A stretch of DNA of 64,000 nt from Eledone cirrhosa (lineage: Eukaryota), in assembly GCA_964016885.1 (NCBI GenBank), contig OZ024743.1, positions 253,642,001 through 253,706,000 of the forward strand, read 5' to 3'. The notes under the pieces are model-generated. The model was not told the DNA's origin. It did no database searches and saw only the letters and a list, made by a program, of their open reading frames with translations. Shown in pieces: positions 8,107 through 58,205 of the stretch (position 1 is its first letter; every line of letters begins with the position of its first letter). A program made the position numbers and the translations under genes.

Positions 8107-8600
8107 TATATATATGTGTGTGTCTACATATATATGTGTATATAAAAATTCATTGAAAGGCATCATTGAAAAATATGCTTACAGGATGGAGAAATGAAAA
8201 TAATTTTGATGAATAAACTTCATTTTAAATTGATGTATACGCATATCTGTGTGTGTGAGTATATAGCTATATATCTATCTCTATATATGTATGCATTTAT
8301 ATATATATATATACGCATATGTATTTATGTGTGTGTATGTATACACGCACACGCACATATATATATATATGTGTGTGTGTGTATAGGAAATGTGAAAATG
8401 TTGTATATTAAAAGCAGAAACATCAAATGCGTGTATTTTAATACAGATGATCATATATTACTACATCACTCTCAACATTCATCTTGTTTACAGTGTACTG
8501 TTTACCGTATACGTACTTCCACATACATAATTATGTTGTGGCTTTTGTTAGTGTTTTTATGATATTTTATCTTAAATCTCTTTTTCATATTATGATATAT

Positions 8601-14914: not shown

Positions 14915-15552
14915 GAAAATGTTAGTAAGTAAGTTGATTTTTAATTTTTAAAATTTTCTTATTTTACGTCTTTCATATAATTGTTCTGCATCCCCCTGCA
15001 TAGAACCACAAAGGTACTAAGACATAACATATATATTTGCTAGCATAGGTGAACATCTGTACACATATGTTGGTAAATGTACTAATTCTCTCTCTCTCTC
15101 TATATATATATTTATTTATATTTTACTTTCTTATATATATATATATATATATACATATATTTTTTGTATTTTTTTGTTCTTATTTATTTATTTAGTTATT
15201 CCTGCTTCCTTACTACTTCCCGGTTTGGGAGTGCATATATATCTGTATATGTATGTGTATGTATTTATGTATATATCTGTGTATATGTATGTGTGTGTAT
15301 TTATGTTCTTGTCCGTATCTCTTTGTAGACGCAAATACGCTTATGTGAGAAAGTATACGTCTAGGTACTATTAGGTATATGCGCGTAGTTGAGTGTGTGT
15401 ATGTTTACGTTCTGGATATTTATATTTTTATATATATATATATATTTTTTCTCCCTATTTCCTTTTGCCCGTTTTTGCAGCCTCACTTTCATATTTGGTA
15501 AATTTTGTTTTCAAATCCATATTTAATAAAAACACCATGTATTTTATTCATT

Positions 15553-15606
15553 CTGACGACTGAAGACAGACACAACATCTGTCTCAAGAAACCACTCGTA
15601 TATCAA
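15553..15606 (+). ncRNA. Decayed HHR-like motif
   Basis: CTGACGA-cTGAaGACAGA cacaaca TCTGTCTCAa-GAAAC-cactc-GTA; stem I pairs poorly. Confidence 0.45.
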
Positions 15607-15712
15607 ATAATTATCTTATGGTGTTTAATACAATCTCTGTAGCCTACATAGAGCACTCTATTTTCCTGTACCTTTCCGACGGAATTACATCGTACACATA
15701 TATATATATATT

Positions 15713-15933
15713 TATTTATTAAAATAACAGATTAAAGTTGAAGCAAAGAATCGCTGCTTTCACCCTTAACGGGATCTTTAGAAGATCCCGTTAAGGGTGA
15801 AAGCAGCGGTTCTTTGATTAAACTTTAATCTGTTATTTTAATAAATATTTGCACTGCGGTTCTTATATATCTGATATATATTTAGCTTTATCGAGCCATC
15901 TTTGGATTTTAGTCTTCAAATTTATTATTATAG
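15713..15933. mobile_element. Fold-back fragment of the pseudo-LTR of the PLE at 27563-30668
   Basis: 15713-15778 is inverted against 15782-15847, which matches 30603-30668; the tail 15841-15933 is the reverse complement of 27563-27657. Confidence 0.85.
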
Positions 15934-16000
<67 letters not shown>

Positions 16001-16008
<8 letters not shown>

Positions 16009-16332
16009 TGTATATATAGTGTATTTGGTAATACATTGTATGCTTAATTAAAAGCATTTTGAAGACCTTACGCAATTGTTTTAAAGTAGGGACTATGTCA
16101 CTTATTTCTTTTTTCAACAAACAAAGGGAGTGCTAAGCTCTGAGAATACCAACAGTATGAAACAGAGATCTGTCAACTTATCTCCCTTTGTTGAAAAAAG
16201 AAGTGACACAGTCACTACTTTAAAACAATAGAGTAAGGTCTTCAAAATGCTTTTAATTAAGCATACAGTGTATTACCAAATACACTATATATACATTCAT
16301 ATATACATCGCTATTTTAGAGCACCAATTCTA

Positions 16333-16335
<3 letters not shown>
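16001..16335. mobile_element. Fold-back mini-element with an HHR in the loop
   Basis: 16001-16130 is inverted against 16182-16305; ~30 bp tail; (TA)n on both sides. Confidence 0.8.
16134..16180 (+). ncRNA. Hammerhead ribozyme lacking N7
   Basis: TAAGCT-CTGAGA-ATAC caaca GTAT-GAAAC-AGA ga TCT-GTC-AACTTA. Confidence 0.65.
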
Positions 16336-16396
<61 letters not shown>

Positions 16397-16465
16397 TATG
16401 AAGAGAGAAGAAACATTTAGATATAATTAGTAATAAAATGTATCATACCTAAACTGTTCCTAAAT

Positions 16466-16553
16466 TCCTCGACTACGTAGTTTCGTGGCATAAACAAAAA
16501 CAATATATCAAAGATATAGAGTCCTTGCGAGGTCTGCCGACTTATCAAGAGGA
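16466..16553 (-). ncRNA. Type-I hammerhead ribozyme, U3-A8 variant (unit 1)
   Basis: Minus strand TCCTC-TTGATAA-GTcGGCA...TGCCAC-GAAAC-TACGTA-GTC-GAGGA. Confidence 0.8.
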
Positions 16554-17056
16554 TACCTCATTTTACTAGTCTCAAGAACGCGTCTACACGACGTGAGAAA
16601 GAATCCCAAAAGGCGGAGGGGGAGATAGTCACGTGATATAACGGTCGAGAAACAGAGCTAAGCCTCTTATAACCACGAAGAAAATACCACGGAGGCGGAG
16701 GGGGTATTCATATCGAGGCCGTAGAAGAGGTAGTGAAGAAGGCGAGAAGTATGAGTAATGGAAGCTTTCCAGTTGTCCCCACACTTCAAAGATTGCTCGA
16801 CCAGAGGGAGTTATTAATATATTTAGAAACACACAGATAAATGCGGACACACACATATATACATGAATGCATCCGCACCCAACTGTGAGTTAAGGGTGCC
16901 AACTTCACCGATGTTGCTCAATGAATGACTGGGACAGACCAATTCAGTTTGAACCAGACTGAACCAGTATCAGAGTTAAAAATACATTATGAAGAGAGAA
17001 GAAACATTTAGATATAATTAGTAATAAAATGTATCATACCTAAACTGTTCCTAAAT

Positions 17057-17144
17057 TCCTCGACTACGTAGTTTCGTGGCATAAACAAAAACAATATATC
17101 AAAGATATAGAGTCCTTGCGAGGTCTGCCGACTTATCAAGAGGA
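17057..17144 (-). ncRNA. Type-I hammerhead ribozyme, U3-A8 variant (unit 2)
   Basis: Same sequence, +591 bp. Confidence 0.8.
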
Positions 17145-17647
17145 TACCTCATTTTACTAGTCTCAAGAACGCGTCTACACGACGTGAGAAAGAATCCCAA
17201 AAGGCGGAGGGGGAGATAGTCACGTGATATAACGGTCGAGAAACAGAGCTAAGCCTCTTATAACCACGAAGAAAATACCACGGAGGCGGAGGGGGTATTC
17301 ATATCGAGGCCGTAGAAGAGGTAGTGAAGAAGGCGAGAAGTATGAGTAATGGAAGCTTTCCAGTTGTCCCCACACTTCAAAGATTGCTCGACCAGAGGGA
17401 GTTATTAATATATTTAGAAACACACAGATAAATGCGGACACACACATATATACATGAATGCATCCGCACCCAACTGTGAGTTAAGGGTGCCAACTTCACC
17501 GATGTTGCTCAATGAATGACTGGGACAGACCAATTCAGTTTGAACCAGACTGAACCAGTATCAGAGTTAAAAATACATTATGAAGAGAGAAGAAACATTT
17601 AGATATAATTAGTAATAAAATGTATCATACCTAAACTGTTCCTAAAT

Positions 17648-17735
17648 TCCTCGACTACGTAGTTTCGTGGCATAAACAAAAACAATATATCAAAGATATA
17701 GAGTCCTTGCGAGGTCTGCCGACTTATCAAGAGGA
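17648..17735 (-). ncRNA. Type-I hammerhead ribozyme, U3-A8 variant (unit 3)
   Basis: Same sequence, +1182 bp. Confidence 0.8.
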
Positions 17736-18056
17736 TACCTCATTTTACTAGTCTCAAGAACGCGTCTACACGACGTGAGAAAGAATCCCAAAAGGCGGAG
17801 TGGGAGATAGTCACGTGATATAACGGTCGAGAAACAGAGCTAAGCCTCTTATAACCACGAAGAAAATACCACGGAGGCGGAGGGGGTATTCATATCGAGG
17901 CCGTAGAAGAGGTAGTGAAGAAGGCGAGAAGTATGAGTAATGGAAGCTTTCCAGTTGTCCCCACACTTCAAAGATTGCTCGACCAGAGGGAGTTATTAAT
18001 ATATTTAGAAACACACAGATACATGCGGACACACACATATATACATGAATGCATCC

Positions 18057-18540
<484 letters not shown>

Positions 18541-18740
18541 AAAATTTCCATAATGATCTTTAATGCTTGGTGGCTATTACACCATGCAATATCCACTGAG
18601 TCAGTTAGTACAAATTATTTGTTGCCAATAAAAATGTTTACCTTTAGTTTTTCAATCATAGTTTTAAATAAAATAAAAAATCATTAGAATTTAATTTTCA
18701 AAATTCGCTGAAAATTATGTGTACTATCTCTAATGTGAAA

Positions 18741-18890
18741 GGAGGCGAATTAGCAGAATTGTTACAGCGTTGCACAGAATACTTTGCAGTATTTGTTCTG
18801 GCCCTCTGCACTCTCAGACTCTCTGTTCAAATTTGCTCTTCATTATTTTGAGGTTGATATAAAAGTACCACTCAACTACTGGGACCAATC
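18741..18890 (+). mobile_element. Degenerate tRNA-derived SINE
   Basis: A-box-like TAGCAGAATTG, B-box-like GTTCAAAT, and AAAGTACCA...CTGGG shared with the 35.3 kb copy. Confidence 0.5.
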
Positions 18891-19547
18891 CTCCATATTC
18901 ATATCTCTCTACCACTCTTTCTCTTTATCCTCCTCTTGAAGAAATCAGTTGTATTCAGACCTGGAGAGGGTTGGACTCCACCAGTTTTAAAATGCAAAGA
19001 AATATCACTATGGCACCCCCCAAACTCTATCAGAAATTATGGGTTCATACATATATCTCATAGGAGAGAAGTTGTAGCATGAAAGTTAATATAATTCTGT
19101 ACAGAATAGTATTATATAAGAAGTGTAGCTGGAAAGAAATAAAACAATCTGGTGTGGAGCCTCATTGGCATATATTTGGTCACATTCCCAGGATAGACAG
19201 AAAATCTCCTGCTAATAAAACCCAATCAATTAATTCTATACAGGTGAACTTCAGTAATTCCACAGAGAGAAGTATAACTGTCTATCAATCACTTTGTATG
19301 TATAACAACTTAACTGTAGGTGTACAATGCCTGCGTTGACTAAATAATGTACTGTTAGTTGGTGAATTGGCAGAGTTGTTAGAACCTTGCTGTATTTTAT
19401 TCCAGCTTTCTACACACTGTGTTCCAACTTTACCTAGGTCAACTTTGTAATTCTTCCTTTCAGACTTGATTAATAAAGCATGAATACTGTGTAGTGTATT
19501 GACAGAATAAATAATGCATAACATGCTTTGCATTATAATTCATTCTG

Positions 19548-19715
19548 CAATTGGTTGTGTGCTTTGCAGCATAGAGTTACGGCCCTTTACATTCTGAATT
19601 CAAATCCCACCGAGGTTAGCTTTGCCTTTCATCCTTACGACGTCGATAAAAATGCACCAGTAATTGACTTTCCCCTCACCTAAAACTGTTTACTTAAATC
19701 AGAAACCATTATTTA
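19548..19715 (+). mobile_element. tRNA-derived SINE (Octopus-type)
   Basis: TTCAAATCCC..CGAGGTTAGCTTTGCCTTTCATCCTTACG..GTCGATAAAA core; AGAAACCATTATT end. Confidence 0.8.
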
Positions 19716-19984
19716 TTCTCCCTTTCTACTCACTGAATTTGAATAACACCAAGGTCATTTGAGCCTTATACAGATTGCTTTACCGTACTTGTTCTGGCTT
19801 TCTGTGCCAATAAATTACCAGTTCAGAGCAATGGATTGGTGGAATCATAAGATCATCAGATAAATGCCTTGTGGTAGTAATTCCAGTACTCTGTTCTCTG
19901 AGTTCAAATCCCACGTTAGAGCATTGATGAGGCTTCCTAGTAATATTTGTTCTGGCTCTCATTAAATTTCACTCAGAAGGTCAA

Positions 19985-20078
19985 CCTAAAGCTACAGTAG
20001 AAGACACTTTCCCAAGCAGCTATGCAGTCAGATCTAACCAAAAAAGCATAATACTGGGAAGTGAATTTCTTAACCACA
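19985..20078 (-). mobile_element. Head of a second tRNA-derived (CORE-like) SINE
   Basis: Minus strand GTGGTTAAGAA...CTTGGGAAAGTGTCTTCTACTGTAGC. Confidence 0.55.
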
Positions 20079-20957
20079 TAAAAACACACCGTTCTAGACT
20101 ATAACACTGTAATTAACATCACACCACACAACACTACACTACATTACACAACAACACAGTCCTGCACATTACACCACACTACACCGCATCGCTCCACTCC
20201 ACACTAGACTACACCATTTAACACTACAGTGTACCACATTTCACCACATTACACCACACTAACATACTATAACAGACGTACACAGTAGGATTTTCTAAAA
20301 TCACAACAATATGATACACTACTACGCAAAAGGATAGATAGGTAGACAGCTAGAAAGAGAGAGAGGGGGTGATAAATAGAGAGAGTAAAAGAAAGAAAGA
20401 GAGAGTGAAAAAAAGAACGAGATAGATAAGTAGAGAGAGATATAGATAGTAGATATATAGATAGATATAGAGTGAAAGAGATAGAGAAATAGAGAGGCAA
20501 CAGATAATTAGGAAAGGTATTAAACTCATGACCATAAAAGTCCAATATTTAAAACTAATTATCCTCAAGGGCAGTTTATTTCATTGTCAGCTAAATAATT
20601 CAGAATTACCGTATAATTATTTAGCATTCTATATGGCAATTAATATATATCTACAGGATATTCCATATAAATCCTCTCTTACTATCTTTTTACCTATCTA
20701 TCGCAGTCTGTTTCTCTCTCTCTCACTCTCTCTCTCTCTCTCTCTCTCTCACAAATACACTCTCTATTTTTCTATATCTCTCTACAGCACTCTCTCTTTC
20801 TCTTTGTTTCTTTGTCTCTTTGTCTCTCTCTTTCTTATACTCACACACAGACATACTCTCTTTATCTCTGTCTCTCTCTCTTTATCCCACATAGTTTCTC
20901 TTTCTCTTTGACTCTCTCTTTCTTACACTCAGACATACAAACACACAGACATACCCC

Positions 20958-21065
<108 letters not shown>

Positions 21066-21687
21066 ATATATTGCTATCAGAAATCTTTCCATTTATCAAT
21101 GCCTTTATCTCAATGTAAACACAATTAATAGATATATTAAATATGCCAGAGCTACACAACAAACAATACAATTAACAATGCTTTGTTTAATTCCAACACT
21201 TTCCTGTTGTTGCTGTGGTTGTGGTTGTTTTCTAAAGAATTGTAGTTGGCCTGGAGTCATAGCATCATCAGTAGATTCAGCGCAGTAGCTAACACCACAT
21301 TCACCACTAACCACCACAACCATGAACATGATCTTCATCAACCACCCAACTAACCACCACAACCATCATCATTAACAACCACCCTAACTACCACAACCAC
21401 CACTACTCCATCACCATCATAATTGCCACTACCACCATTATCGTCAACCACCACCACTAAGCACTGCAACCAGCACCACCACTACCCCATCACTATCATC
21501 ATTGACAACACCAACATTATCATCCACAAAAACCATTACTAGCATCACCATCACCACCACCATCATCGATACCACCTCCACTACTATCACCAATCACATT
21601 ATCATCATCGTCAACTATTACCATGACCATCATCATCAACAACTATTACCACCACCATCAACATGATCCACTACTGTTCAACATTAA

Positions 21688-22005
21688 AAGAAGGTAAAGG
21701 GTAAAGACACCCTATAGTCTTAAATGACCATGGGTTTTCCTTCAAGAAGGTTCCCCTCTGAAGCACGAGCAAGGGGTTTTATGAAAAACCAGCAGTCACT
21801 CTCCCTTAAATACCAGTCTCCTCTCTTCACATCCCCAATGTTGTCCAAGGGAGAGGCAAATGTCAATACAGCTTGTCACCAGTGAGTCTGAAACTCATTT
21901 CTACAGCTGAGTGATTACTTAAGGAGGGAACACATTGGCCAGTCTGGTAATCTAACTCACAAACTTACGAATGTAAATCCAAATCTCTAACCACTAAGCC
22001 ACGTG
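21688..22005 (-). mobile_element. Third tRNA-derived SINE family
   Basis: Minus strand starts GTGGCTTAGTGGTTAG (A box), contains CACTCAGCTGTAGAAATGAGT, ends in CTTTACC repeats. Confidence 0.65.
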
Positions 22006-22492
22006 TTCAACATTACACAACAACAAACAGTCAAACAACCAACTTCCAAAAGTTGATGATAATGATCAGAGAATCTATGGTAGCAATGTTTATTATAAAG
22101 TTACAGGTAAACAAAGTCTGTGGTTAATTACAAGTGGCTGACTAATGAGTCATGATAATCAGACTATACAAAACAATGATAATAATATTAACAATGATGA
22201 AGAAGAAGAAGAAGAAGAAGAAGAAGAAGAAGAAGAAGAAGAAGAAAAGCAACAACAACAACAATAACAACAAAAAGGATGATGATAATGAGGATGAGGC
22301 ACAGGAGGAGAACAGCAACTTCAACAAGAACACAAACTACATTTAAAAAATTAATAATAATCAAGGAAAGAAAGAAGGAAAAAGTAAAAATTTTGTATGT
22401 GATGCTATAAATAGTTACCTTGTGGTCCGTCAGCAAGAAACCTCAGTTACATAGTACGCCGCCAATACCAACAACAATAATATCACCATCAC

Positions 22493-23726
22493 TACCAACA
22501 ACAATAACAAAACCAATAATACCAACAACATCAACATCCACCACTACCACTACCAACAACAATAACAAAACAAATAATACCAACAACATCAACATCCACC
22601 ACTACCACCACCAACAACAATAACAAAACCAATAATACCAACAACATCCACCACTACCACTACCAACAACAATAACAAAACCAATAATACCAACAACATC
22701 CACCACTACCACTACCAACAACAATAACAAAACCAATAATACCAACAACATCAACATCCACCACTACCACCACCAACAACAATAACAAAACCAATAATAC
22801 CAACAACATCAACATCCACCACTACCACTACCAACAACAATAACAAAACCAATAATACCAACAACATCAACATCCACCACTACCACCACCAACAACAATA
22901 ACAAAACCAATAATACCAACAACATCAACATCCACCACTACCACCACCAACAACAATAACAAAACCAATAATACCAACAACATCAACATCCACCACTACC
23001 ACCACCAACAACAATAACAAAACCAATAATACCAACAACATCAACATCCACCACTACCACCACCAACAACAATAACAAAACCAATAATACCAACAACATC
23101 AACATCCACCACTACCACCACCAACAACAATAACAAAACCAATAATACCAACAACATCAACATCCACCACTACCACCACCAACAACAATAACAAAACCAA
23201 TAATACCAACAACATCCACCACTACCACTACCAACAACAATAACAAAACCAATAATACCAACAACATCAACATCCACCACTACCACCACCAACAACAATA
23301 ACAAAACCAATAATACCAACAACATCAACATCCACCACTACCACTACCAACAACAATAACAAAACCAATAATACCAACAACATCAACATCCACCACTACC
23401 ACCACCAACAACAATAACAAAACCAATAATACCAACAACATCAACATCCACCACTACCACCACCAACAACAATAACAAAACCAATAATACCAACAACATC
23501 AACATCCACCACTACCACCACCAACAACAATAACAAAACCAATAATACCAACAACATCAACATCCACCACTACCACCACCAACAACAATAACAAAACCAA
23601 TAATACCAACAACATCCACCACTACCACTACCAACAACAATAACAAAACCAATAATACCAACAACATCAACATCCACCACTACCACCACCAACAACAATA
23701 ACAAAACCAATAATACCAACAACATC
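22493..23726. repeat. 58/52 bp minisatellite, about 21 units
   Basis: Unit ACCAACAACAATAACAAAACCAATAATACCAACAACATC(AACATC)CACCACTACCACY. Confidence 0.95.
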
Positions 23727-24499
23727 AGCAATAACATCAACGTCACTACCAACAACAACATCACCAGCACAAATGACATCAACAATAACATCAGCAATAA
23801 CAACATCAATAATACCATAAACAACACTACCACCAACATCAAAACCAACAACAGCATCAAGACCATCACTATCACCAACAACAATTAAACTACCACAAAC
23901 AACATCGCTACCAAGGCACAAACACTAATACCACCAACAACAAATTATTCAGACTCCATTCGTTATCTGGTAGTTTATTAGTTTTATTTAATTTGCATGA
24001 TTGCACATAGCTTATACACCCTGTGTGTATGTGTACAATATGACCGCTGCAACCTAATGATGTCCATCATCCCCTATACCAGTAAGTGATGTAGATCAGT
24101 GCTTGTTTTGTAGTGATGTGGCAGCATAGAGGACTGGTTTAATTCTTCCATGAGCAGTAAGGTTATAGTTAATAGGGTCAATTGTAGATTTACATTACTT
24201 AGGTTCGGGGTTGGCTTTGATTTAATCTCGATCTATTTACGTTCAAATCAATGTAACGGGCAGTCTTAGTTAAAGACATACAATACATTCTGTGATTTAT
24301 ACCCCTCCCAACTTCCGTTCTTAGCCACCCACTTATCCTCTGTGGCTATTTTCTGAAATAGCATGCACTACTGACTGCTATACCCCATTCTATTGTATAC
24401 TTTGATCACAGCTGTGGACACTACTATATACATTTCTCTCTTTTCGTTTGGACAGCATTCCATCGTATACTTCGATCACAGACCTGAATACCACCTACA

Positions 24500-24599
24500 C
24501 ACATACATACATACATACATACATACATACATACATACATACATACATACATGCATACATGCATACATACATACATACATACATACATACATACATACA

Positions 24600-24628
<29 letters not shown>
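24500..24628. repeat. (CATA)n microsatellite
   Basis: Direct reading. Confidence 0.95.
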
Positions 24629-24631
<3 letters not shown>

Positions 24632-25480
24632 GTAACTGCCTCAATACAAATCTTGAGAAGCTAGGCTTCACAGGAACAGAAGAACACAACTAGTTAGGAA
24701 ATTACAAGTACAATCCATTAATGGAGCAGTAAAAATATGTGAAACATTCCAAATATTTTGCATCTAATAACTGCATATACACATGTACAGATACAAAGCA
24801 TATACACATGCACACATACAAATCAAAATATACACATCTACACATACAATAACATCCATATCTACACATGCATGCATACATACATATCTACCTAGTTGAT
24901 GTTGTGTAAATTCCAATGAGAGAGTATTGTGTCTATGTTAGAAACCGACTTTCTCTCTATTGGTAAAACTTTGTGAAATTATAAAACCAGAAGAACATAC
25001 ATACATACATACATACATACATACATACATACATACATAGACACTCATTCATACATACAGATTGTCCACACAAGATATATATATTTTCTACGTGTATAAG
25101 AGGAAAGACTAATATTGAAATAAGATAAAAGAATATAAACATCAGACAATGGCTGATGGTTGAACAATTCTTTAGAATTAAGAATATTAACTAAGGTGTG
25201 GTTCTATTACTTCTATATTCCATCTATTCCTTTTCTTTTATGTCTCAGCTATGTTTGACAAGCTTTTAATTATTTCATATTTCAAAATGGTTTGTTGATT
25301 AAAATCATTGTTTGCTGTGATTGTGAGAATGTGTATGTGTATATATTAAAACAGTCGATCGACAAGATCCCAGACCACATTCACTTAACGAGTGGGGTAG
25401 AGATTGTCAAATCGGACTGAGGAAACAATGTTTGCATTGGTATTTCCAATTGCTAATATTATCTGCCTGTCGCAAATATG

Positions 25481-25518
<38 letters not shown>

Positions 25519-25555
25519 GTTAAAAAGATCAAATTTTAGTTTAGAACATTTATTA

Positions 25556-25600
25556 GCTGACAATTGTTTCTTCCAGAGGGAAGTCTGGATTCATCGGAGC
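25556..25600 (-). ncRNA. Hammerhead ribozyme with U4C core, in PLE pseudo-LTR fragment 25513-25680
   Basis: Minus strand GCT-CCGATGA-aTCCAG acttccct CTGGAa-GAAAC-AATT-GTC-AGC-tAATAAA. Confidence 0.7.
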
Positions 25601-26063
25601 ATAAGGAATGTCGAAACCTGTAACTAAAATCCCAGTCATTTAGAACATTTAGGGTACATATTTGTTATTAGTGTTAACACCTTGTATCTCGGCTCTGTAA
25701 TACACTTGAAAATTTGCATTGAGTCTTTTGTCATACCGGTAACCGGCTCGTACTTAGTACTATCCTACATATTTATAGTTATATCAAACATATATAAATA
25801 TAAATATTACTATATATATATGTGTATATATATATATATATAATTAAGTTAAAGATGTACATCCATATATGTATACTGAAATACTAGTATGTATATGAAT
25901 ACACACACGTATACATATGTAGGTGTACCAAGTTTTTTCACTGGTCACTTTACTGTGAGTGGCCAGCTATTCTGTATGTAAACACACAGACAAACCGGTT
26001 TTTAGAGTCATACTGGTTTTTGAGGAAACACCTCTCCTCTATTCTCCAGAAAGCCAGACAAGG

Positions 26064-26108
26064 AATATTGAACTAGTTTCGTTGTTGTTACAACTCATCA
26101 GCAATATT
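26064..26108 (-). ncRNA. Canonical minimal hammerhead ribozyme
   Basis: Reverse complement of 26660-26704. Confidence 0.9.
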
Positions 26109-26659
26109 TACCTATCTTCCGGCCTCTCTAGAGAATCGTAAAAGCACATATCATTATATGCTTTTTCTATGAAAATTAGTAGTGGGCAGACTAATTTGCA
26201 TAGAGTGTGAGTAAGTACCGGTTCAACGGAGACGATAAAAACAAATAACGAAACGAAATTAAATTTCGTTTCGTTTGTAACTCACTTTTGTATGACTGAC
26301 GCTTAAACAATTAAGTTAAAGATGTACATCCATATATGTATACTGAAATACTAGTATGTATATGAATACACACACGTATACATATGTAGGTGTACCAAGT
26401 TTTTTCACTGGTCACTTTACTGTGAGTGGCCAGCTATTCTGTATGTAAACACACAGACAAACCGGTTTTTAGAGTCATACTGGTTTTTGAGGAAACGAAA
26501 TTAAATTTCGTTTCGTTTGTTATTTGATTTTATCGTCTCCGTTGAACCGGTACTTACTCACACTCTATGCAAATTAGTCTGCCCACTACTAATTTTCATA
26601 GAAAAAGCATATAATGATATGTGCTTTTACGATTCTCTAGAGAGGCCGGAAGATAGGTA

Positions 26660-26704
26660 AATATTGCTGATGAGTTGTAACAACAACGAAACTAGTTCAA
26701 TATT
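26660..26704 (+). ncRNA. Canonical minimal hammerhead ribozyme
   Basis: AATATTG-CTGATGA-GTTGT aaca ACAAC-GAAAC-TA-GTT^CAATATT; predicted cleavage after 26697. Confidence 0.92.
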
Positions 26705-27126
26705 CCTTGTCTGGCTTTCTGGAGAATAGAGGAGAGGTGTTTCCTCAAAAACCAGTATGACTCTAAAAACCGGTTTGTCTGTGTGTTTACATACAGAATA
26801 GCTGGCCACTCACAGTAAAGTGACCAGTGAAAAAACTTGGTACACCTACATATGTATACGTGTGTGTATTCATATACATACTAGTATTTCAGTATACATA
26901 TATGGATGTACATCTTTAACTTAATTGTTTAAGCGTCAGTCATACAAAAGTGAGTTACAAACGAAACGAAATTTAATTTCGTTTCGTTATTTGTTTTTAT
27001 CGTCTCCGTTGAACCGGTACTTACTCACACTCTATGCAAATTAGTCTGCCCACTACTAATTTTCATAGAAAAAGCATATAATGATATGTGCTTTTACGAT
27101 TCTCTAGAGAGGCCGGAAGATAGGTA

Positions 27127-27171
27127 AATATTGCTGATGAGTTGTAACAACAACGAAACTAGTTCAATATT
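27127..27171 (+). ncRNA. Canonical minimal hammerhead ribozyme
   Basis: Identical, +467 bp; predicted cleavage after 27164. Confidence 0.92.
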
Positions 27172-27460
27172 CCTTGTCTGGCTTTCTGGAGAATAGAGGA
27201 GAGGTGTTTCCTCAAAAACCAGTATGACTCTAAAAACCGGTTTGTCTGTGTGTTTACATACAGAATAGCTGGCCACTCACAGTAAAGTGACCAGTGAAAA
27301 AACTTGGTACACCTACATATGTATACGTGTGTGTATTCATATACATACTAGTATTTCAGTATACATATATGGATGTACATCTTTAACTTAATTGTTTAAG
27401 CGTCAGTCATACAAAAGTGAGTTACAAACGAAACGAAATTTAATTTCGTTTCGTTATTTG

Positions 27461-27555
<95 letters not shown>

Positions 27556-27657
27556 ATATATATAGTAATAATAATAAAATTGAAGACTAAAATCCAAAGA
27601 GGGCTCGATAAGGAAAATATATATCAAATATATAAGAACCGTAGAGCAAATATTTAT

Positions 27658-29667
27658 GCCTTTTATTTCGATAATCCGCGAAAAGCAGACAACAAACAGG
27701 ATAAATTTGGATTTAAAACCTATAATAACCCTCCGTGGAACCCAGCATTGCTACCCTTCGAAAATGATGTCTTGGAACTCATTCGGAATATCAAATTTCG
27801 GGATAGGAGCAAATCCTTACAGCAAGACATGAAGAATAGAATTCGTTCTATTAAGGATTCTAACGCCGTGCACGTCCATTCCAACAAAACTGGCAACCTA
27901 TATCAAGTGGAGCGCAGTACTTACCATCAACTACTACATAATGCTGTAACTAAGGATTACCGTAAAAATAATCGGTGCGTCATCAATGAAATCAACGATG
28001 CTGGGTTTAAAATCACATCTGATCTCAACATCCTGGACCGGACCGAACCTCTGGACCCTATCTCCCCCCACTTTACCCTGAAGGATCACAAATCCAATTT
28101 TCCGAACAACCACTCTATTCGGCTTATTAACCCTACGAAGTCCGATTTAGGTAGACTTAGTAAAACGATTCTTGATAGAATTATACCTGAAATTAGAAGT
28201 TTGGCCCCTCTCGCACTGTGGAACAATTCTTTCGCGGTGATTGATTGGTTCAACGGCATATGTAACAAGGAACAGTGCCGTTTTATCCAATTCGACATCA
28301 ACCATTACTACTCCTCCATCACTTTACCACTTCTCCTTAGAGCTATCAATTTCGCTAAAACACTCACAGTGGTTAAGGATTTTGAAGTTGATGTCATCCT
28401 CAATGCCCGAAAGTCGGTGATTAATTTCGACGAATCTATTTGGATTAAAAAATCCAATAGTACCCCATTCGACGTGAGTATGGGCGCCAGTGACTCTGCG
28501 GAGGTTACTGATCTTATTGGCCTTTTCCTTCTTTTCTCTATGAAGGACGAATTCCCCAACGCGGGCGGTCGTTTGTACCGTGACGATGGTCTTTTGACCA
28601 TGACTAAGTGCGGACCTCGTGTTTGCGACAGGTTCAGAAAAGAACTCACAGCCTTCTTTAAAGGCTTCAACCTCTCTATACAGGTTGAGGCCAATCTCTC
28701 GGTCGTTAATTACCTCGACGTTACCCTCAATTTATTGAATGGGTTGTATTACCCGTATAGAAAGCCGAATGATACGCTTAATTATATAAGTAAGCATTCC
28801 AACCATCCTGCCAGCATAACCAAGAACCTGGTAAGAAACGTTTCGTTGAGGCTTTCCCGTCTTTCCACCAACGAGCGCATTTTCAACGACCATTCTACTT
28901 ATTACAATGAAGCTCTTGCCCGAAGTGGATTTGTCGATAAGGTAGCATATACTGAGTACGAAAATAGACCTAGAAGAAATAGATCCCGTCGCATTTGTTG
29001 GTTTAACCCACCATATAATATGGAGGTGGCCACACCATTAGCTAAGATCTTTCTTTCCTTATTACGAAGCATTTCCCCCTACACATAAACATTAAAAAAT
29101 GTTAATAGAAATACTATTAAAATTTCTTACTCTACCACTCCTAACCTTGCACATAGCATCACAGCTTCAAATTTAGCTAAACTACCTAGCCGTAGGAACA
29201 CGTGCAACCCTGTAGTTAGTACTAACTGTAATTGTAGGAATCGGGCTGATTGCCCCCTATCCGGGGAATGCCTCTCTAGTAACCTTGTCTACAAATGTAA
29301 GGTTGTAACACCCACGTCCCGTAGGGCCTACATAGGGTTAACCGCCAATAGTTTCAAGCAGCGTCTCTACATCCATACCCATTCTTTTCGTTACCCTCTA
29401 AGAAGGAATATGACGTCACTTTCAGCTTATATCTGGAGTCTAAAAGACAACCACACCCAATATAAGTTACACTGGGAGATCCTAGCTAGGGCTAGATCGT
29501 ATAACGGACATAAAAGACCATGTGACCTCTGCGCCGCTGAGGCCCTGGAAATACTCTACGCCACAGACCACATCTTAAACAAAAAATCTGAGGCAATTTC
29601 GGCTTGTAAACATAAATTGCACAAGACTTTCCTGTATTACAGCCCCACGTTATACCCTAACGGATAG
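27658..29667 (+). pseudogene. PLE polyprotein: RT, Cys-rich linker, GIY-YIG endonuclease; one lesion (TAA at 29086-29088)
   Basis: QFDINHYYSSI, MGASDSAEVTDL, LYRDDGL, YLDVTL, SNHP, WFNPPY. The same frame continues NRNTIKISYS, CNCRNRADCPLSGEC, LVYKC..AYIGLT..FKQR, CDLC..E..LNKKSE..CKH. Motif set resembles Naiad-type PLEs (clade from recall, needs phylogeny). Confidence 0.9.
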
Positions 29668-30594
29668 CACGATGTATACGTGGATATTTTACGTCTTGAT
29701 GTGGGAGCTACGTATATGTTTGTTTATTCCTTTACTTATTTGCATAGGTAACTATATATTACCCGTATGTTTTGTGAAGGTATGTATACCTTCTCGTACT
29801 TATATTTGACTGTTATGGCGTATACTTTTTACATATTCTGGTACATATGGTTTGGCTATGTGTATACGGGAGTTTTGCGTCTGCGTGAGTATGCAGGTTC
29901 GTACGTATGGTGGTTGTGTGTATATGTGTATTTCTTGTTTTAGTTGACTTACGTCTCCGAACATTCGTGTATTTATATGTAGGTATGAGTGTGCGCTTGT
30001 TATATACGTATTTATTTACTTATATACGTTTATATAATTATTTATTTATTTGTACACAAGCATACACATACACACATATTTATATGTGCGTGGTTTTGTA
30101 TACCTACGGTAAGGTTTTGCATATGCTTGTGTATGTACGTATCTGTTTGCGTGTATGTATTTATTTGTTTCTATTACTTCTGTATTGTATTTATTTACTT
30201 TGATCTTAACTCTGTAGCGGAGATTCATTTCGTCTCCTAGTTAGAATTTTAGTCTACGACTTCTGCTTACCATTTACGTGATTTTGTCTTTGCGTGCTAT
30301 TGTTCCCCACGCTCCACATATGACTTATTATCTTCGTTTTTTTCGTTCATTGCCAGAGAACGTCTCTATGCACCACCTAAGAGAACATTAGTCTACGACC
30401 TCTTTTATACCATAAACGTGGTTCTGTCTTTGCGCGTAATTGTTTTTCACCGCTCCTATTAATGACGTATTATTCGTTTTTTCCCGTTCTTTGCCAGCGA
30501 ACGTTACCACGAACCAAAGTATCGTCTTCCTGTCTTCCTCCGGTTGCAACGTTTTTTGAAATATCCAGTTCTGCGTTTACAGATTGACTTTGTT

Positions 30595-30645
30595 AGTTTC
30601 AGAAGATCCCGTTAAGGGTGAAAGCAGCGATTCTTTGCTTAAACT
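30595..30645 (+). ncRNA. HHR of the PLE pseudo-LTR (U4A core)
   Basis: AGTTT-CAGAAGA-tCCC gttaa GGGt-GAAA-GCA gcgattctt TGC-TT^AAACT. Confidence 0.65.
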
Positions 30646-30661
30646 TTAATCTGTTATTTTA

Positions 30662-30738
<77 letters not shown>

Positions 30739-31012
30739 GGAAAAATTTGAACAGGAACAAAACAGAGAGGCAGTACAACGAATGTTTATTAATTTCACGC
30801 TCTGGAGAGTGGGGTGGTGGTGGGGAACATTAGAGTATATATATATATATATATATTAGAAAGTGAGGTTTTTTTTACAAATTGAAAAATAAGACTCGAT
30901 TTCATCTCTTTTACTCTCTCTCTCTCTATATATATATATGCTATCCAAAAAAAACTTGAACCGTTAAGATATCTTTTCTTGGTTTTGTCAAAATTTATAA
31001 AACAAACTTTGT

Positions 31013-52650: not shown

Positions 52651-54750
52651 ATGGCTACGAAAAAGAAATTTCATACGTCACTCCCACTCATTCCGTCTTC
52701 TTCTTTCTCAATCATCACTACAGCAGAGAGAAGATTGTCTCTCTCCCTCCCTTCTTTAAATGTGTCTCTCTCCCTCCCTTCTCTTTCGCAAGTGACGAAA
52801 GAAAAGAAAAGTCTCGTGCAAAGCGTGCAAGGTTTCTCCACGACGACGACGACAGCGACGAAACAGGTGTGCAGGAAATACGAAAACCCAGTTCATTCGT
52901 CTGACGTCAGGAATAATAGCAGTAGCAGCCGTAATAACAACTGCAACAGTGACAATGAAAACAACAGTAGCAGCCGCAACAGCATCACCAGCAGCATAAA
53001 CAACAACAGCATTAGCAGCAGCAACACCAACAACAACCACAGCAACAGCGGCGGAGGCAGTAGTCGTAGTACCTGCAGCAACAACAAAAGTACCAGCAGC
53101 TCTGACGACAACAACAAGAGCAGAGAAAAACCAATCTCATTTGCAGGTATTGCGAAAAACCTGGAAACAATCCTCATAACAAATGAGGAATTAGAGGAAG
53201 CGAAGAAGATGGTGACAAAGAACGGACACCGAGCAATCTGCAAGGCAGCGGAAAAATTTTTCGAAACCCAAGAGCACTGTACGGTCACGTACCGTACAGT
53301 AAGTACAAAATCCCGTAGGGTGGAAAGAGCCACAGAGGCCCAAATACAAAAAGCCTTGGGGTCTGTGTGGCAGCGGAAAACGCACATCACCCGAGGCAAA
53401 AAATATGCCACCGTAGACGTACTTTTTGCCACACCCCAGGAGGCAAAGGCCCAATCAGTAGTGACCCTAAGGAGCGAGGAAATGGTGTTGGTGCCCTCCT
53501 ACTGCGGACAAAAAATTGTGAGGGTCAAACTGACACACGTCCCCCCCGGAATGACCCCTTCTTGGCTGGCCGCGTCTGTCCTCGTCGGAATCGAGGACAA
53601 AACAACTGTACTGCAAGTACAGAAAAAAAAAGTAAGAGAAGATTGGGTCGGCTCCTCCATTGAGATGCTAATCCAAACCAACCAGGAGTGCATCGAAGCT
53701 ATCCCGGATGTGATAGACTTCGATAACGGCACTCAACTGCCCATAAGTGTTGAGGGCAAACGCCCGAACTGCTTTCGCTGTGGATCGAAGACTCACCTCA
53801 GGGCCTTCTGCAACGAGAAGACCCTGAGAAAGGAGAAAACCCCCCTCCTTCCGAATCCGGCTCCACGGCTACCAGCAACAGGACAAGCGGCAACCAGGAA
53901 CGATAGGTCCGTGGCACCCATACCCACTCCACGGAAATCAAAAACAGCAGAAGCAGTGGAAATATTAACAACAACAACAGCAATACCAAATGCAGCTGCA
54001 ACAGAGACTCCAGTGCAAACATCACCAACAACAACAAGTGAAAGAGTGGAGCTGGTACCCCTCCCCGACCTCACAGAATCAGACATGGAGTGTGAGGTGG
54101 GAGAGGGATGGCAAAAGGTCGCAAGAAGGCACAAACGCAGAAGCAGCGCATCGTCGCCTTTGAAAAGGGAGGAAAGAAATGAGAAAAGGGTAAAGTCTAC
54201 TGCAAAGAGACCCACAGCAGCAACACCACCAACACCATCACCACCCACACCAGCACCACCATCATCACCGGCGACAACCCCACCACCAACAACACCTTCA
54301 ACACCACCACCACAAGCACCAACATCGCAAACACAACAACAAAACACACACACCCAGCAACAACGACAAGAAAATAGTAGAACCACACCCCACCCCCAGA
54401 AAAACAAATGCACGGCAATAAATACACACAACAAGAAACTAATGACTTACATAATTGAACACACAGACATTTCACAACAGGACTACATAATACCAGCACC
54501 AATCAAAACGCCAACTAACATAAGACTGCTAAAAATAGCACAGAAACAATACACAAATATTAAAACGAAATTCCCCAACGCAGTTGGTGATTTCAGGGAC
54601 CTAGGAGGAACCATCAATCGAAGAGTATACTCAGACATTCTCTTAGAAGAGCCGACGACCAGCCGAAGGGACGATTCAACGGTCCCTTCACCAGACGATC
54701 AAGTGAAAAGGGATGTAAAAACCATCCCTCCTCTACCAAAAGTACGGTAA
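52651..54750 (+). CDS. Tx1 ORF1p (gag-like, CCHC zinc knuckle), 699 aa
   Basis: CFRCGSKTHLRAFC; GWQKVARRHKRR basic motif; S/N- and P/T-rich linkers. Confidence 0.88.
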   Translation: MATKKKFHTSLPLIPSSSFSIITTAERRLSLSLPSLNVSLSLPSLSQVTKEKKSLVQSVQGFSTTTTTATKQVCRKYENPVHSSDVRNNSSSSRNNNCNSDNENNSSSRNSITSSINNNSISSSNTNNNHSNSGGGSSRSTCSNNKSTSSSDDNNKSREKPISFAGIAKNLETILITNEELEEAKKMVTKNGHRAICKAAEKFFETQEHCTVTYRTVSTKSRRVERATEAQIQKALGSVWQRKTHITRGKKYATVDVLFATPQEAKAQSVVTLRSEEMVLVPSYCGQKIVRVKLTHVPPGMTPSWLAASVLVGIEDKTTVLQVQKKKVREDWVGSSIEMLIQTNQECIEAIPDVIDFDNGTQLPISVEGKRPNCFRCGSKTHLRAFCNEKTLRKEKTPLLPNPAPRLPATGQAATRNDRSVAPIPTPRKSKTAEAVEILTTTTAIPNAAATETPVQTSPTTTSERVELVPLPDLTESDMECEVGEGWQKVARRHKRRSSASSPLKREERNEKRVKSTAKRPTAATPPTPSPPTPAPPSSPATTPPPTTPSTPPPQAPTSQTQQQNTHTQQQRQENSRTTPHPQKNKCTAINTHNKKLMTYIIEHTDISQQDYIIPAPIKTPTNIRLLKIAQKQYTNIKTKFPNAVGDFRDLGGTINRRVYSDILLEEPTTSRRDDSTVPSPDDQVKRDVKTIPPLPKVR

Positions 54751-54785
54751 GTGGTCTTTCCCATCTTTTCCACTCTATTTTAAAC

Positions 54786-57700
54786 ATGACCTCACTCAGA
54801 ATAGGCAGCATAAATGCGCGTGGCTTGGGGTCGTCATGGAAGCAGGGTCACCTGCTCAACGACCTCAGGTCACTAAACATAGATGTAGTGGCCATCAGCG
54901 AGACCAGAATCTCCGAAGCACGGGCCTTCGCACCGATCTTCGGCGGCTACGATGTGTACGCATCTCCCAGCCGTCCTGGATCGGGTGGAGGAGTTGCTGT
55001 GCTTTTTCGGAGAGGTTTGGATCTCGCCATACGGGCCATCTTCCTGGACCCAGAGGGTAAGCTGGTGGTGCTGGACGTGACCAGCGGAGACGGGCAAGCT
55101 TTCAGGCTAGTGGCCGTCTATGCCCCGACAGGAGCAGGGCGGCCTTTTTTCTTCCGGCGTCTGGAGACCTTTCTTGGAACGTCCCGCTCTTTAGTGTTAG
55201 TGGGCGACTGGAACGGGATCTTAGATGCACGCTGGGACTGTGTGGGATTAGCGGATAGGGGTGGAGGGTGCAAGAGCCTCACCAACCTGCTCAGGCGTTT
55301 TGAACTGTCTGACAGGTACCGATTGGATTTCCCGAATGTGCCAATGTGGACTTGGACAAACCGCATAGGGTCATCCAGATCATATCTAGATAGAGTATTT
55401 TGTAGGGAAATAGATAGGTCTAGCATAGGCTGTCCACAATTCAAGATAGTCAGCTACACGGACCACAAATTCGTGACCTGTGTGCTTGACTTAGATAGGC
55501 TTCATAGACGAGGACCCGGCTACTGGAAGCTAAACGCGTCCTTACCAGCGCGCAAGGCCTACAGAGACCGGATTAGCGAACTAGTTAAGCGGGCGTTGAC
55601 GGGAGCCATCGTCAACAACAAGTGGTGGTTTGCTCTGAAAAGAGCGATTAGAATAGAATCGATTAGGTTTAGTAAGGCTTTAGCAATAGAGAAAAATAGA
55701 GCAGAGGGAGAACTAGTTAGAAAATTAGACGAGGCGCTTAGCAAAGGCATTGCGACCGACGTGCTTGCGGCGAAATTGGCCCTTGACCAATTCTTCAATG
55801 CAAAGCACGAAGGCTGCGTTGTCAGAGCTAGGGTGCGTGCTCTCAGACACGAGGGGACGAAAGCCATTCAATGGGCCCGAGTGGCGGAGGCGCGTCGTGG
55901 TAACAAAGCCACGATCCGGTCTTTGGTGGACCACGACGGGCGCATGCTACTCGATCCCGGGCAAATGTGTGAAGCTTTTCAGCGACACTTCGCTCAGCTG
56001 TTCGGGGGCAGCGGGGGGCCGGGTAGAGGGATGGACTTTAGTGTCTACCTCGACGGACTGCCGCGGCTCTCGGCCACTGAGGCGAAGTGTTGCGAAAAGC
56101 CGATAACAGCCGCTGAAGTACGGGAGGCAATGACCGGCTGCACAAGGGGTAAATCGCCTGGTTTGGATGGTCTGCCCTATGAACTTTACGTACAGATGCC
56201 AGACTTGTTCGGAGGCCTCTTGGCGGACGTCTACTGCAACTGGCAACAGAACGGGAGAATTCCCAGTTCTGTGAGCCGAGGAGCGGTGGCACTGCTGAGA
56301 AAGGATCCGAACAAGGGGGATAACATAGACAATTTCCGGCCCATAACTCTGCTAAACACAGAGTTTAAGATTTTGGCCAAGGTGCTAGCAAAGAGGTTGG
56401 CGCTTGTCGTTGGTGGTCTGGTGGGAGAGGCGCAGACATGCGCCATTCCCGACAGATCCATCCACGACAACCTCCACCTCATGCGATACATCGTAGAGAG
56501 GGTAGCTAGGGAACCTGGCACGGGTGGGTCCTTGATCAATTTAGATCAGTCGAAAGCTTTCGATAGGGTCGACCATCGTTACCTAGCGGCAGACCTGAGG
56601 GCGGCTGGCTTTGGGCCCGTCTTCAGAGGCTGGATCGCTGCCATGCACAGCGACATCTGCTCTGTGGTGAGAGTGAACGGTCACCTGTCGGAACCGTTCA
56701 ACATCATGCGCTCGGTCCGCCAAGGATGTCCCCTCTCGTCCCTCTTGTACGTATTGACTCTCGAGCCATTACTGCACAAACTGGAGACGTTGAGGGGAGT
56801 CCCGCGCGAACTAGGATGCGGAAGATCCGTGTCAGCATATGCGGACGATGTCACCGTAGTGGTGTCGAACGCCAAACACATCGAGGCGATCGGCACTACA
56901 CTAAGAGAATACGAAGCGGTGACAGGAGCAATGATCAACCAGGAAAAGTCAGTGGGCCTGCAGCTCGGCACCAGGAGAGGCAGGTCCATACCGTCCAACA
57001 GCGTCGTCGGGCGCTGGACGGACGGACCGGTTAAATTGCTAGGGGTCTGGTTCGGTCCGGACCTCCAGACGGACAAAAACTGGGACGAGGTGACGAGCAG
57101 GGTGGCTTCTCTCACCCAGAAATGGGCGGAGAGGAAGCTATACCTGAAAGGTCGAGCGGAGGTGGCTAACGCGTACATCGCGTCTGTTATCTGCTACCGC
57201 CTAACCGTCGTACCTTGTCCTAAGCCTCGCCTGACTGCGCTGGAGCGTTTGCTCTTTCGCTTTTTGTGGAAGGGACGTGCTCCGATGGTCAGGCGGTCCA
57301 TCTGTTGTCAACACCCGCTACGTGGAGGGCTGGGCATGCCGTGGCTGATGATGCGCAGGCACGCGCTCAGGCTACGACATCTCCACCTCTTCCTCGACGG
57401 TGAACAGGTGTGGTCGCCGTTTGCTAGACGCGTTTTTCCCCAGCTCGTTTCCTTGACGGAGCTGCAGTCCTGGGTCAAGCGAAGACCGAGAGGGAGCGCC
57501 TGGAGACTGGAATGTCTTCAGGCGCTCACAGCCCTCGACCAATCGGGCAATGTGATCGGTGGAAACTCCACCTCGGCGTTCTATAGAGGATTAGTGGAGG
57601 GGAAGAGCGACGACGTACTTGGGGAAACTCTAGGCGTCGACGAAAATCAACTAGCCAATCTCTTCGGAAGAACTTTCGGGCCAGGGCCTATGGACAACTT

Positions 57701-58205
57701 CCAGAAATCTCTGGCCTGGCAGTGCTACCGAGGAGCCTTGCCAGTTCGGGATAAACTCTACAGGCATGGAGGTGCCGTCAGCCGGGCATGTCCGAGATGC
57801 GCGCAGGGCGACGAAACCGTCCTGCACGCACTCGTCCAGTGTCCGAAAATTGCTGACTTGTGGGTTTATGTCGAACACCTGCTGTCGCGTTTAGGACGGA
57901 TCCAGCTATCATCTGAGTCTATCGTGAGGATTGCCCCGCCCTCCTCCTTTAGCCGGGAAGGGCAGGCAGTTTTTATCTGTCTGGTGGCCATGGCGAAAGA
58001 GATAGTATGGTGGACACGTTTGAAAGGGCTGAAGACGAGCACTTACCTCTTCGGTGATGCTCTGATTGACTTTTTCAAATTTCATTTGAAAAGGAAAATC
58101 AGAGTAGAGAAGGAAGTGCTCTCTTCCCAGCATTTTGTTGAAAGATGGGTGAGAGAAGCAAGAATGGCCCGAGTGAATGGGCCGACTCTGAGTATATATC
58201 TGTAA
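54786..58205 (+). CDS. Tx1 ORF2p: APE endonuclease, RT, C-terminal zinc finger, 1139 aa, intact
   Basis: SINARGL, ISET, VYAP, GDWN, SYLDR, TDH, GYWKLN, KSPGLDGLPYE, DQSKAFDRVDH, RQGCPLS, AYADD, CPRC..ETVLHALVQC. Confidence 0.95.
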   Translation: MTSLRIGSINARGLGSSWKQGHLLNDLRSLNIDVVAISETRISEARAFAPIFGGYDVYASPSRPGSGGGVAVLFRRGLDLAIRAIFLDPEGKLVVLDVTSGDGQAFRLVAVYAPTGAGRPFFFRRLETFLGTSRSLVLVGDWNGILDARWDCVGLADRGGGCKSLTNLLRRFELSDRYRLDFPNVPMWTWTNRIGSSRSYLDRVFCREIDRSSIGCPQFKIVSYTDHKFVTCVLDLDRLHRRGPGYWKLNASLPARKAYRDRISELVKRALTGAIVNNKWWFALKRAIRIESIRFSKALAIEKNRAEGELVRKLDEALSKGIATDVLAAKLALDQFFNAKHEGCVVRARVRALRHEGTKAIQWARVAEARRGNKATIRSLVDHDGRMLLDPGQMCEAFQRHFAQLFGGSGGPGRGMDFSVYLDGLPRLSATEAKCCEKPITAAEVREAMTGCTRGKSPGLDGLPYELYVQMPDLFGGLLADVYCNWQQNGRIPSSVSRGAVALLRKDPNKGDNIDNFRPITLLNTEFKILAKVLAKRLALVVGGLVGEAQTCAIPDRSIHDNLHLMRYIVERVAREPGTGGSLINLDQSKAFDRVDHRYLAADLRAAGFGPVFRGWIAAMHSDICSVVRVNGHLSEPFNIMRSVRQGCPLSSLLYVLTLEPLLHKLETLRGVPRELGCGRSVSAYADDVTVVVSNAKHIEAIGTTLREYEAVTGAMINQEKSVGLQLGTRRGRSIPSNSVVGRWTDGPVKLLGVWFGPDLQTDKNWDEVTSRVASLTQKWAERKLYLKGRAEVANAYIASVICYRLTVVPCPKPRLTALERLLFRFLWKGRAPMVRRSICCQHPLRGGLGMPWLMMRRHALRLRHLHLFLDGEQVWSPFARRVFPQLVSLTELQSWVKRRPRGSAWRLECLQALTALDQSGNVIGGNSTSAFYRGLVEGKSDDVLGETLGVDENQLANLFGRTFGPGPMDNFQKSLAWQCYRGALPVRDKLYRHGGAVSRACPRCAQGDETVLHALVQCPKIADLWVYVEHLLSRLGRIQLSSESIVRIAPPSSFSREGQAVFICLVAMAKEIVWWTRLKGLKTSTYLFGDALIDFFKFHLKRKIRVEKEVLSSQHFVERWVREARMARVNGPTLSIYL

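Follow-up and report, generated by a model that had tools for sequence, protein, structure and literature searches.

A young, non-autonomous hammerhead retroelement of Eledone cirrhosa with Penelope-type insertion footprints

The tandem array at positions 16391–18056 of the window (the whole 64,000-nucleotide stretch analysed here, positions 253,642,001 to 253,706,000 of the forward strand of Eledone cirrhosa contig OZ024743.1, assembly GCA_964016885.1) is genuine: it is a hammerhead retroelement, young and non-autonomous, that bears clear footprints of Penelope-type insertion. It is best explained as one young insertion of an abundant, non-coding hammerhead family, likely written into a (TA)n tract by a Penelope-like element (PLE), with reverse transcription (RT) probably proceeding round a 591-nt circular RNA; the probability of this reading is about 0.58. 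Its strongest feature is a Penelope-type pair of fixed start sites, which the preliminary description of this DNA had missed.

The near-identical head-to-tail array of about 2.8 units that was originally described is found as such, with period-591 identity extending over 1,666 bp or 2.82 units. The only mismatches between units are the two reported before, and both fall in unit 3: 17801 (G>T) and 18022, where the C of unit 3 is the family majority base and the A of the other two units is the rare one. The start had been placed at 16391; the period indeed runs from there, but the first templated base is 16394, and 16391–16393 (ATA) represent microhomology with (TA)n. The flanking (TA)n tracts are clean, as had been stated. 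The insertion is composed of the following features, in which a strand is given where one applies.

16336..16393: (TA)n target, left; the last three bases (ATA) match the internal context of the unit
16394..16984, minus strand: unit 1, 591 bp; 16394 is start site A, the fixed 3′ end in the hammerhead sense
16811..16830, minus strand: start site B, unit position ~424; internal in the array copy, with repeats at ~17408 and ~17999
16985..17575, minus strand: unit 2, identical to unit 1
17576..18056, minus strand: unit 3, 5′-truncated at unit position 481 and differing at 17801 and 18022
18056..18065, plus strand: right junction, CTAAATATAT, equal to the inverted site-B end
18060..18539: (TA)n target, right

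The window's insertion consists of one site-A arm of 1,663 bp, and the left (TA)n tract would be the primer side of target-primed reverse transcription. At the right junction, 10 bases, mostly A or T, match the inverted site-B end. They hint weakly at a possible vestigial second arm with about 4 templated bases; a chance match could also explain them.

In agreement with the earlier remark that no credible open reading frame is present, no frame lying entirely within the repeats exceeds 86 codons from stop to stop, and longer frames are read-throughs of (TA)n. The array lacks the RT plus GIY-YIG frame of an autonomous PLE. Upstream of the hammerhead, 16612..16637 holds what we take to be GC-box-like and E-box-like motifs, which are kept in an 81%-identical relative and form a candidate internal promoter. 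No tRNA gene is found within 15000–31000, and hence there is no sign of a tRNA-derived SINE. Beside the array, 16016–16300 is an element of ~285 bp with long terminal inverted repeats (MITE-like or another fold-back). Further along the window are a 58-bp minisatellite (22464–23727, 22 copies, 95% matches), several LINE-type RT elements (41500–62000), and, at 54591–58205, an uninterrupted 1,204-codon endonuclease-RT frame preceded by a 703-codon frame.

A motif scan of both strands of the window yields seven hammerhead matches. Three of the seven correspond to the single minus-strand type I hammerhead per unit noted previously, with cores starting at 16548, 17139, and 17730. Another three belong to a different family, and the match at 8166 is weak and chance-like. 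The array motifs are positioned as follows.

16466..16553, minus strand: hammerhead 1, type I; predicted cut between 16471 and 16470
17057..17144, minus strand: hammerhead 2; predicted cut between 17062 and 17061
17648..17735, minus strand: hammerhead 3; predicted cut between 17653 and 17652

The other hammerhead family, at 25845–27467, is unrelated, has a 467-bp unit, and also lies in (TA)n. It carries a canonical minimal CUGAUGA core at 26101, 26667, and 27134, and its two arms lie back to back, with outer ends that differ from each other.

Each array motif comprises a 5-bp helix I, the core UUGAUAA (U3–A8), a helix II of ~56 nt, GAAA, and a palindromic helix III, with GUC at the predicted cut; cleavage at all three would release two full 591-nt monomers. 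These motifs depart from the canonical hammerhead as specified in 2020 (C3–G8, 6-bp helix I, 4-bp helix II with loop contacts). An Rfam search of the array finds no hammerhead at the gathering threshold or at E ≤ 10, because the core is a U3–A8 variant with a ~56-nt helix II; weak miRNA-type matches were set aside as chance hairpins. A C3–G8 version of the unit's core context is absent from the genome, and therefore there is no core covariation within the family. The same traits are described for hammerheads in the terminal repeats of metazoan PLEs, among them the U3–A8 variant of Schistosoma mansoni Cercyon elements: U3–A8 covariation in place of C3–G8, a short helix I of 4–5 bp, an enlarged helix II, and a helix III whose palindrome lends itself to dimer formation (PMC4209133). 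In contrast, helix II of the array is far longer, and whereas the PLE motifs in that source are mostly single and adjacent to an ORF, the array motif occurs in tandem non-coding units.

The palindromic helix III does not fold by itself, but two copies of it pair at −12.9 kcal/mol. The hammerhead fold is ~1 kcal/mol costlier than the best fold of the local sequence, and helices I and III do not form when the motif is folded without constraint. By these models the hammerhead would likely act as a dimer. The circular monomer is highly self-paired on the hammerhead strand, with a z score of −6.2 vs −1.2 for the opposite strand (40 shuffles).

The preliminary description had made its reading depend on other genomic copies, and these are plentiful: a 22-nt core word has 7,502 exact matches in the 3.0-Gb genome, and a control word has none. 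A DNA search of the genome returns at least 85 matches from the best 40 scored candidates, and full-length matches are 87–100% identical. The family is dispersed and multicopy and lacks an LTR. Across ~110 insertions, the core together with helices I and III shows 0.5% non-majority bases vs 3.3% elsewhere in the unit; the value is 0.4% for the UUGAUAA half of the core, which lies outside the search word, and the core is unaltered in relatives at ~80% identity. Older relatives at 70–83% identity are present at three sampled loci (L074:770-1080, L101, and L122). Two of them, L074 and L122, retain a site-A or site-B end, from which it follows that the family has deep lineages. L101 and L122 were rejected as partner elements, being non-coding relatives at ~80% identity.

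The head-to-tail unit junction is present in independent public contigs. Contigs of one deep run span it, and others terminate loosely in (TA)n at sites A and B. Two runs, from two studies and of a kind not known, each contain one unbranched, self-closing contig of 591 or 590 bases at a depth of ~8. These were discounted as proof of a circle, since DNA tandems yield the same pattern.

The insertion footprints are defined by the points at which (TA)n is fused to the unit. By exact match, which makes the counts lower bounds, (TA)n is joined to site A (unit position 1) at least 2,628 times in the genome and to site B (position 424) in at least 1,018 arms, and controls give 0 in both cases. The two sites are 168 nt apart, site A being 77 nt and site B 245 nt past the predicted cut. 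Insertions were sampled in order along contig C1, and 48 of 51 loci were kept, the exclusions being L101, L122, the duplicate L086–L088 group, and the middle piece of L112. In these 48 insertions, 69 of 72 arms begin at A or B. Half of the insertions (24) have two back-to-back arms: 21 combine A with B, one is A+A, and two include an unclassified arm, such that A+B pairing is found in 21/22 classified cases (p = 5.5e-6). A second sample, of 40 loci picked by end junction, agrees, with A+B in 20/23 multi-piece insertions. More than one unit is present in 16/37 of its A arms, and 33/37 extend beyond 85 nt; 5′ ends of arms are scattered. The family thus displays the two fixed 3′ ends, random 5′ truncation, and inverted arms of PLE-mobilised sequences. 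A Helitron or satellite origin was rejected on the basis of the fixed paired ends and the inverted arms. One two-arm insertion on contig C1 has a second, identical occurrence at a distance of 2.55 kb (L083 and L086, G000:C1:19,619,900-19,623,900), reflecting either a local duplication or an assembly repeat.

Two internal RT start sites are the “tail” signature of PLEs (PMC11167929), and PLE-type integration of the 591-bp family is very probable. A close parallel is the Poseidon PLE PAc of Anolis carolinensis (PMC11167929), which has two internal RT start sites downstream of its hammerhead, cuts AT-rich DNA, and extends from both strands. However, PAc is autonomous, and its tail measures 30–40 bp vs 168 nt in the 591-bp family. 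According to the same source, PAc uses the same start sites on both strands and primes without homology, whereas the arms of the 591-bp family nearly always use different sites and show 3–6 nt of AT microhomology.

Among PLEs, the Hydra clade is one that targets (TA)n (PMC8557442), and an element of this type lies in the window.

27545..30667, plus strand: Hydra-type PLE, candidate helper; RT plus C-terminal GIY-YIG, broken in the window copy

This element has an inverted short arm at 27545–27655 and, near 30598, a hammerhead-like motif with CAGAAGA (A replaces U4) and a long helix III. It fits the Hydra clade, in which it is placed by motifs rather than by a tree: a C-terminal GIY-YIG without CCHH, a CxCX5C linker, CxxC and CxH, and insertion in (TA)n. 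A Neptune-type identity was dropped after the motif check. A Pfam search of the PLE pieces gives no match, and an Atlas look-up of them leads to RT-type clusters. A genome search with the C-terminal part gives 68,297 first-look candidates, the best 150 of which score at 94–100% identity, and some genomic copies have open frames of 713 codons. At the 30 loci examined, the element has two alternative ends against (TA)n, separated by ~90 nt, and inverted pairs contain one of each 3′ end. Of note, 15706–15935 is a short fold-back of the two 3′ ends of this same PLE, back to back in (TA)n, i.e., the two-end layout in miniature.

The 591-bp family and a co-resident PLE with open ORFs hence target the same microsatellite, and the Hydra-type family is the best, though not well supported, candidate for the helper of the 591-bp unit. 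No sequence common to the unit and this PLE was found, one PLE family having been compared, and a limited search returned no autonomous element carrying the unit. The elements of PMC8557442 resemble the 591-bp family in (TA)n targeting (by the Hydra clade), in tandem and inverted insertions, and in a tail on one end, and the non-autonomous Chlamys elements of that source (e.g., MRC1) are likewise multicopy head-to-tail derivatives. In contrast, the Chlamys elements generally share 3′ sequence with their autonomous partner, while the 591-bp unit shares none with the Hydra-type family compared. At L147:1103-1190, a site-A arm is followed by a few bases and then an 83%-identical PLE tail; this is 1 of 53 junctions and is not counted as proof. 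At L106, an arm is joined to the end of a third family. Both loci are possible mixed two-template insertions.

The nature of the template is the point on which the main alternatives diverge. Since A arms run past the predicted cut, the template must be continuous there, as a circle, an uncut multimer, or monomers between which RT has jumped. The non-integer copy number, previously read as a sign of rolling-circle synthesis, does not discriminate, as a fixed RT start with a random 5′ stop produces it, also from an uncut multimer.

The sharing of alleles within insertions also bears on the template. An allele is termed private when it occurs in one insertion only among the 114 sampled of thousands; counts refer to private alleles covered by at least two units, after removal of three “some” alleles from a misassigned L074 neighbour. 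Of the 188 such alleles, 43 are common to every covering unit, 3 are present in some of them, and 142 are confined to a single unit. At L120, three private alleles are found in 7–8 of 7–8 units, across both arms. RNA-sense A>G changes account for 9/43 shared vs 6/142 single-unit private alleles (Fisher p = 0.0015). Within the shared alleles alone, A>G vs U>C stands at 9 to 6 (p = 0.08); without the divergent locus L092, the source of 9 of the 43 shared alleles, p is 0.026 (post hoc). Taken as sequence patterns, the sharing and the A>G enrichment favour repeated copying of one (edited) monomer, though a homogeneous source array would likewise produce shared alleles. Also weighing against it, divergence within insertions (median 0.62%) is barely lower than that to the nearest other insertion (0.72%) and is the lower of the two in 41/69. 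On these patterns the template would, on balance, be a circle.

Rolling-circle RT, the mechanism first proposed for the array, is therefore sustained in part: allele sharing across the family fits repeated monomer copying, but the array itself is an imperfect case of it. Units 1 and 2 have the rare A at unit position 447 (4/110 insertions), and unit 3 has the common C. This A,A,C pattern is not what three clean passes round a single circle would leave; it could stem from local duplication at a later time, from a mixed template, or from a site of recurrent error. The rare A is also seen in one arm only of L006 and of L021.

The foremost alternative retains PLE-type integration but takes an uncut multimeric transcript of an existing array as the template, with a hammerhead that is weak or used at another step and with no circle required. 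The anole PLE, the one PLE studied in vitro, acts mainly on uncut, unprocessed RNA (PMC11167929), and PLE-type hammerheads are poor cleavers in vitro (PMC4209133). The unconstrained fold without helices I and III, the A,A,C pattern, which suits a mixed multimer, and the existence of source arrays of up to ~5 units per arm (L120) also speak for it. Against it, an intermediate distribution is seen for only 3 of the 188 private alleles counted above, while 43 are in all units, often in both arms; independent editing along a multimer would leave A>G in single units, yet such changes are rare there, and the hammerhead core is conserved. An uncut multimer is considered unlikely, though it is a serious contender.

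A second alternative concerns the array and is compatible with the family mechanism: the array was inserted as 1.82 units and then gained one by local duplication or assembly error. The identity of units 1 and 2, with a rare allele absent from unit 3, is as expected from such a gain, and no public contig spans the locus, as contigs break at (TA)n. However, the same allele in single arms of L006 and L021 indicates that the site may be a recurrent copying-error spot, and arms of more than two units are found at other loci as well. A later gain of a unit is rated as rather unlikely.

In a third alternative, the template is a cut linear monomer, and multimers arise because RT, on reaching the 5′ end, jumps to a 3′ end. 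The C1 sample was selected by a hammerhead word and is unsuited to examining stops at the cut site; the junction-picked loci were used instead. Arms of L156 and L164 stop exactly at the predicted cut, at the linear-monomer lengths of 77 and 245 nt. These 2/53 5′ ends (p = 0.004, pre-set position) are a small hint that some RNA is cut. Against a template of this kind, such stops make up only these two ends, and the hammerhead haplotypes listed cross the cut site without junction insertions or deletions (by inspection rather than formal count). Jumping between linear monomers is improbable. The least probable alternative, that an unfound autonomous PLE has the unit as its terminal repeat (pLTR) and the arrays are truncated copies of that element, would account for the PLE-type hammerhead, tail, and inversions and has a parallel in Xenopus retrozymes that match pLTRs (10.64898/2026.07.22.740005), but it is at odds with direct head-to-tail unit junctions with no ORF between them and with 0/53 single-arm junctions leading straight into the Hydra ORF (the Hydra-type family being the only reference). 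An ancestral origin of the unit from a pLTR is possible.

For the preferred reading, i.e., PLE-type insertion probably templated by a circle, the following sequence of steps is proposed. The candidate internal promoter would drive transcription of a multi-unit locus, from which the hammerheads, probably dimeric via the palindromic helix III, would excise 591-nt monomers to be closed into circles by a host ligase. A PLE protein, with the co-resident Hydra-type family as the best candidate, would cut both (TA)n strands, and each DNA end would then prime inside the RNA by means of the AT microhomology, one at site A and the other at site B. How far synthesis travels round the monomer would be random, and the joining of one or two cDNA arms would give tandem or back-to-back arrays. 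The array locus would represent one long site-A arm. Against this reading, insertion by the anole PLE is unchanged in hammerhead mutants (PMC11167929), and 8 of 9 Xenopus retrozyme dimers tested do not cleave in vitro (10.64898/2026.07.22.740005). The fullest form of the proposal, in which a PLE-type enzyme reverse-transcribes one edited circular RNA from both (TA)n break ends, each with its own start site, is tentative, and the odds are slightly against it.

Metazoan non-LTR retrozymes (PMC7229834; 10.64898/2026.07.22.740005) are the nearest known class. Like the array family, they are non-coding tandem units of <50% GC with one type I hammerhead per unit, dispersed as dimers to multimers, with a strongly self-paired monomer and co-resident PLEs. 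A retrozyme is expected to have tandem non-coding units with at least two complete type I hammerheads, and the array has three in its 2.82 units. The unit exceeds the 150–450 bp given in the 2020 paper (PMC7229834), but it is not unusually long, as had been suggested, because non-LTR retrozyme consensuses of 51–972 bp are reported in the 2026 preprint (10.64898/2026.07.22.740005), and 591 bp falls within this range. Unlike in those retrozymes, the array hammerhead is non-canonical (U3–A8, ~56-nt helix II, 5-bp helix I). Expression as linear and circular RNA and self-cleavage, further traits of non-LTR retrozymes, are predictions for the array family. The array family is a retrozyme by the tandem and size definition of 2026 and fails the canonical hammerhead of 2020; it is filed as a variant.

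Fixed paired start sites and (TA)n targeting, both of which the array family has, are not described for metazoan non-LTR retrozymes in the portions of these two sources drawn on here. More generally, no description of paired start sites or two-arm insertions for retrozymes was found in the literature searched, a body that excludes most subscription journals and all supplements. A PLE link of retrozymes is proposed in both sources, and the mover enzyme of animal retrozymes and a circular template are, in the cited texts, proposed rather than demonstrated. With the element class, the U3–A8 core, and the PLE link already in print, the array family serves well as a test case but does not constitute a new system.

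The value of the 591-bp family is that it makes the integration step testable. It offers defined coordinates, namely two start sites, a predicted cut site, and a young helper candidate with 713-codon frames, and its thousands of near-identical insertions provide allele patterns that can separate a circle from a multimer. It also illustrates that standard hammerhead models miss an abundant family. If the tentative proposal of an edited circular template is true, the A>G scars that recur from unit to unit and from one arm to the other would directly document that an animal circRNA undergoes rolling-circle retrotransposition, and the helper of that circRNA would be an enzyme with no sequence in common with it.
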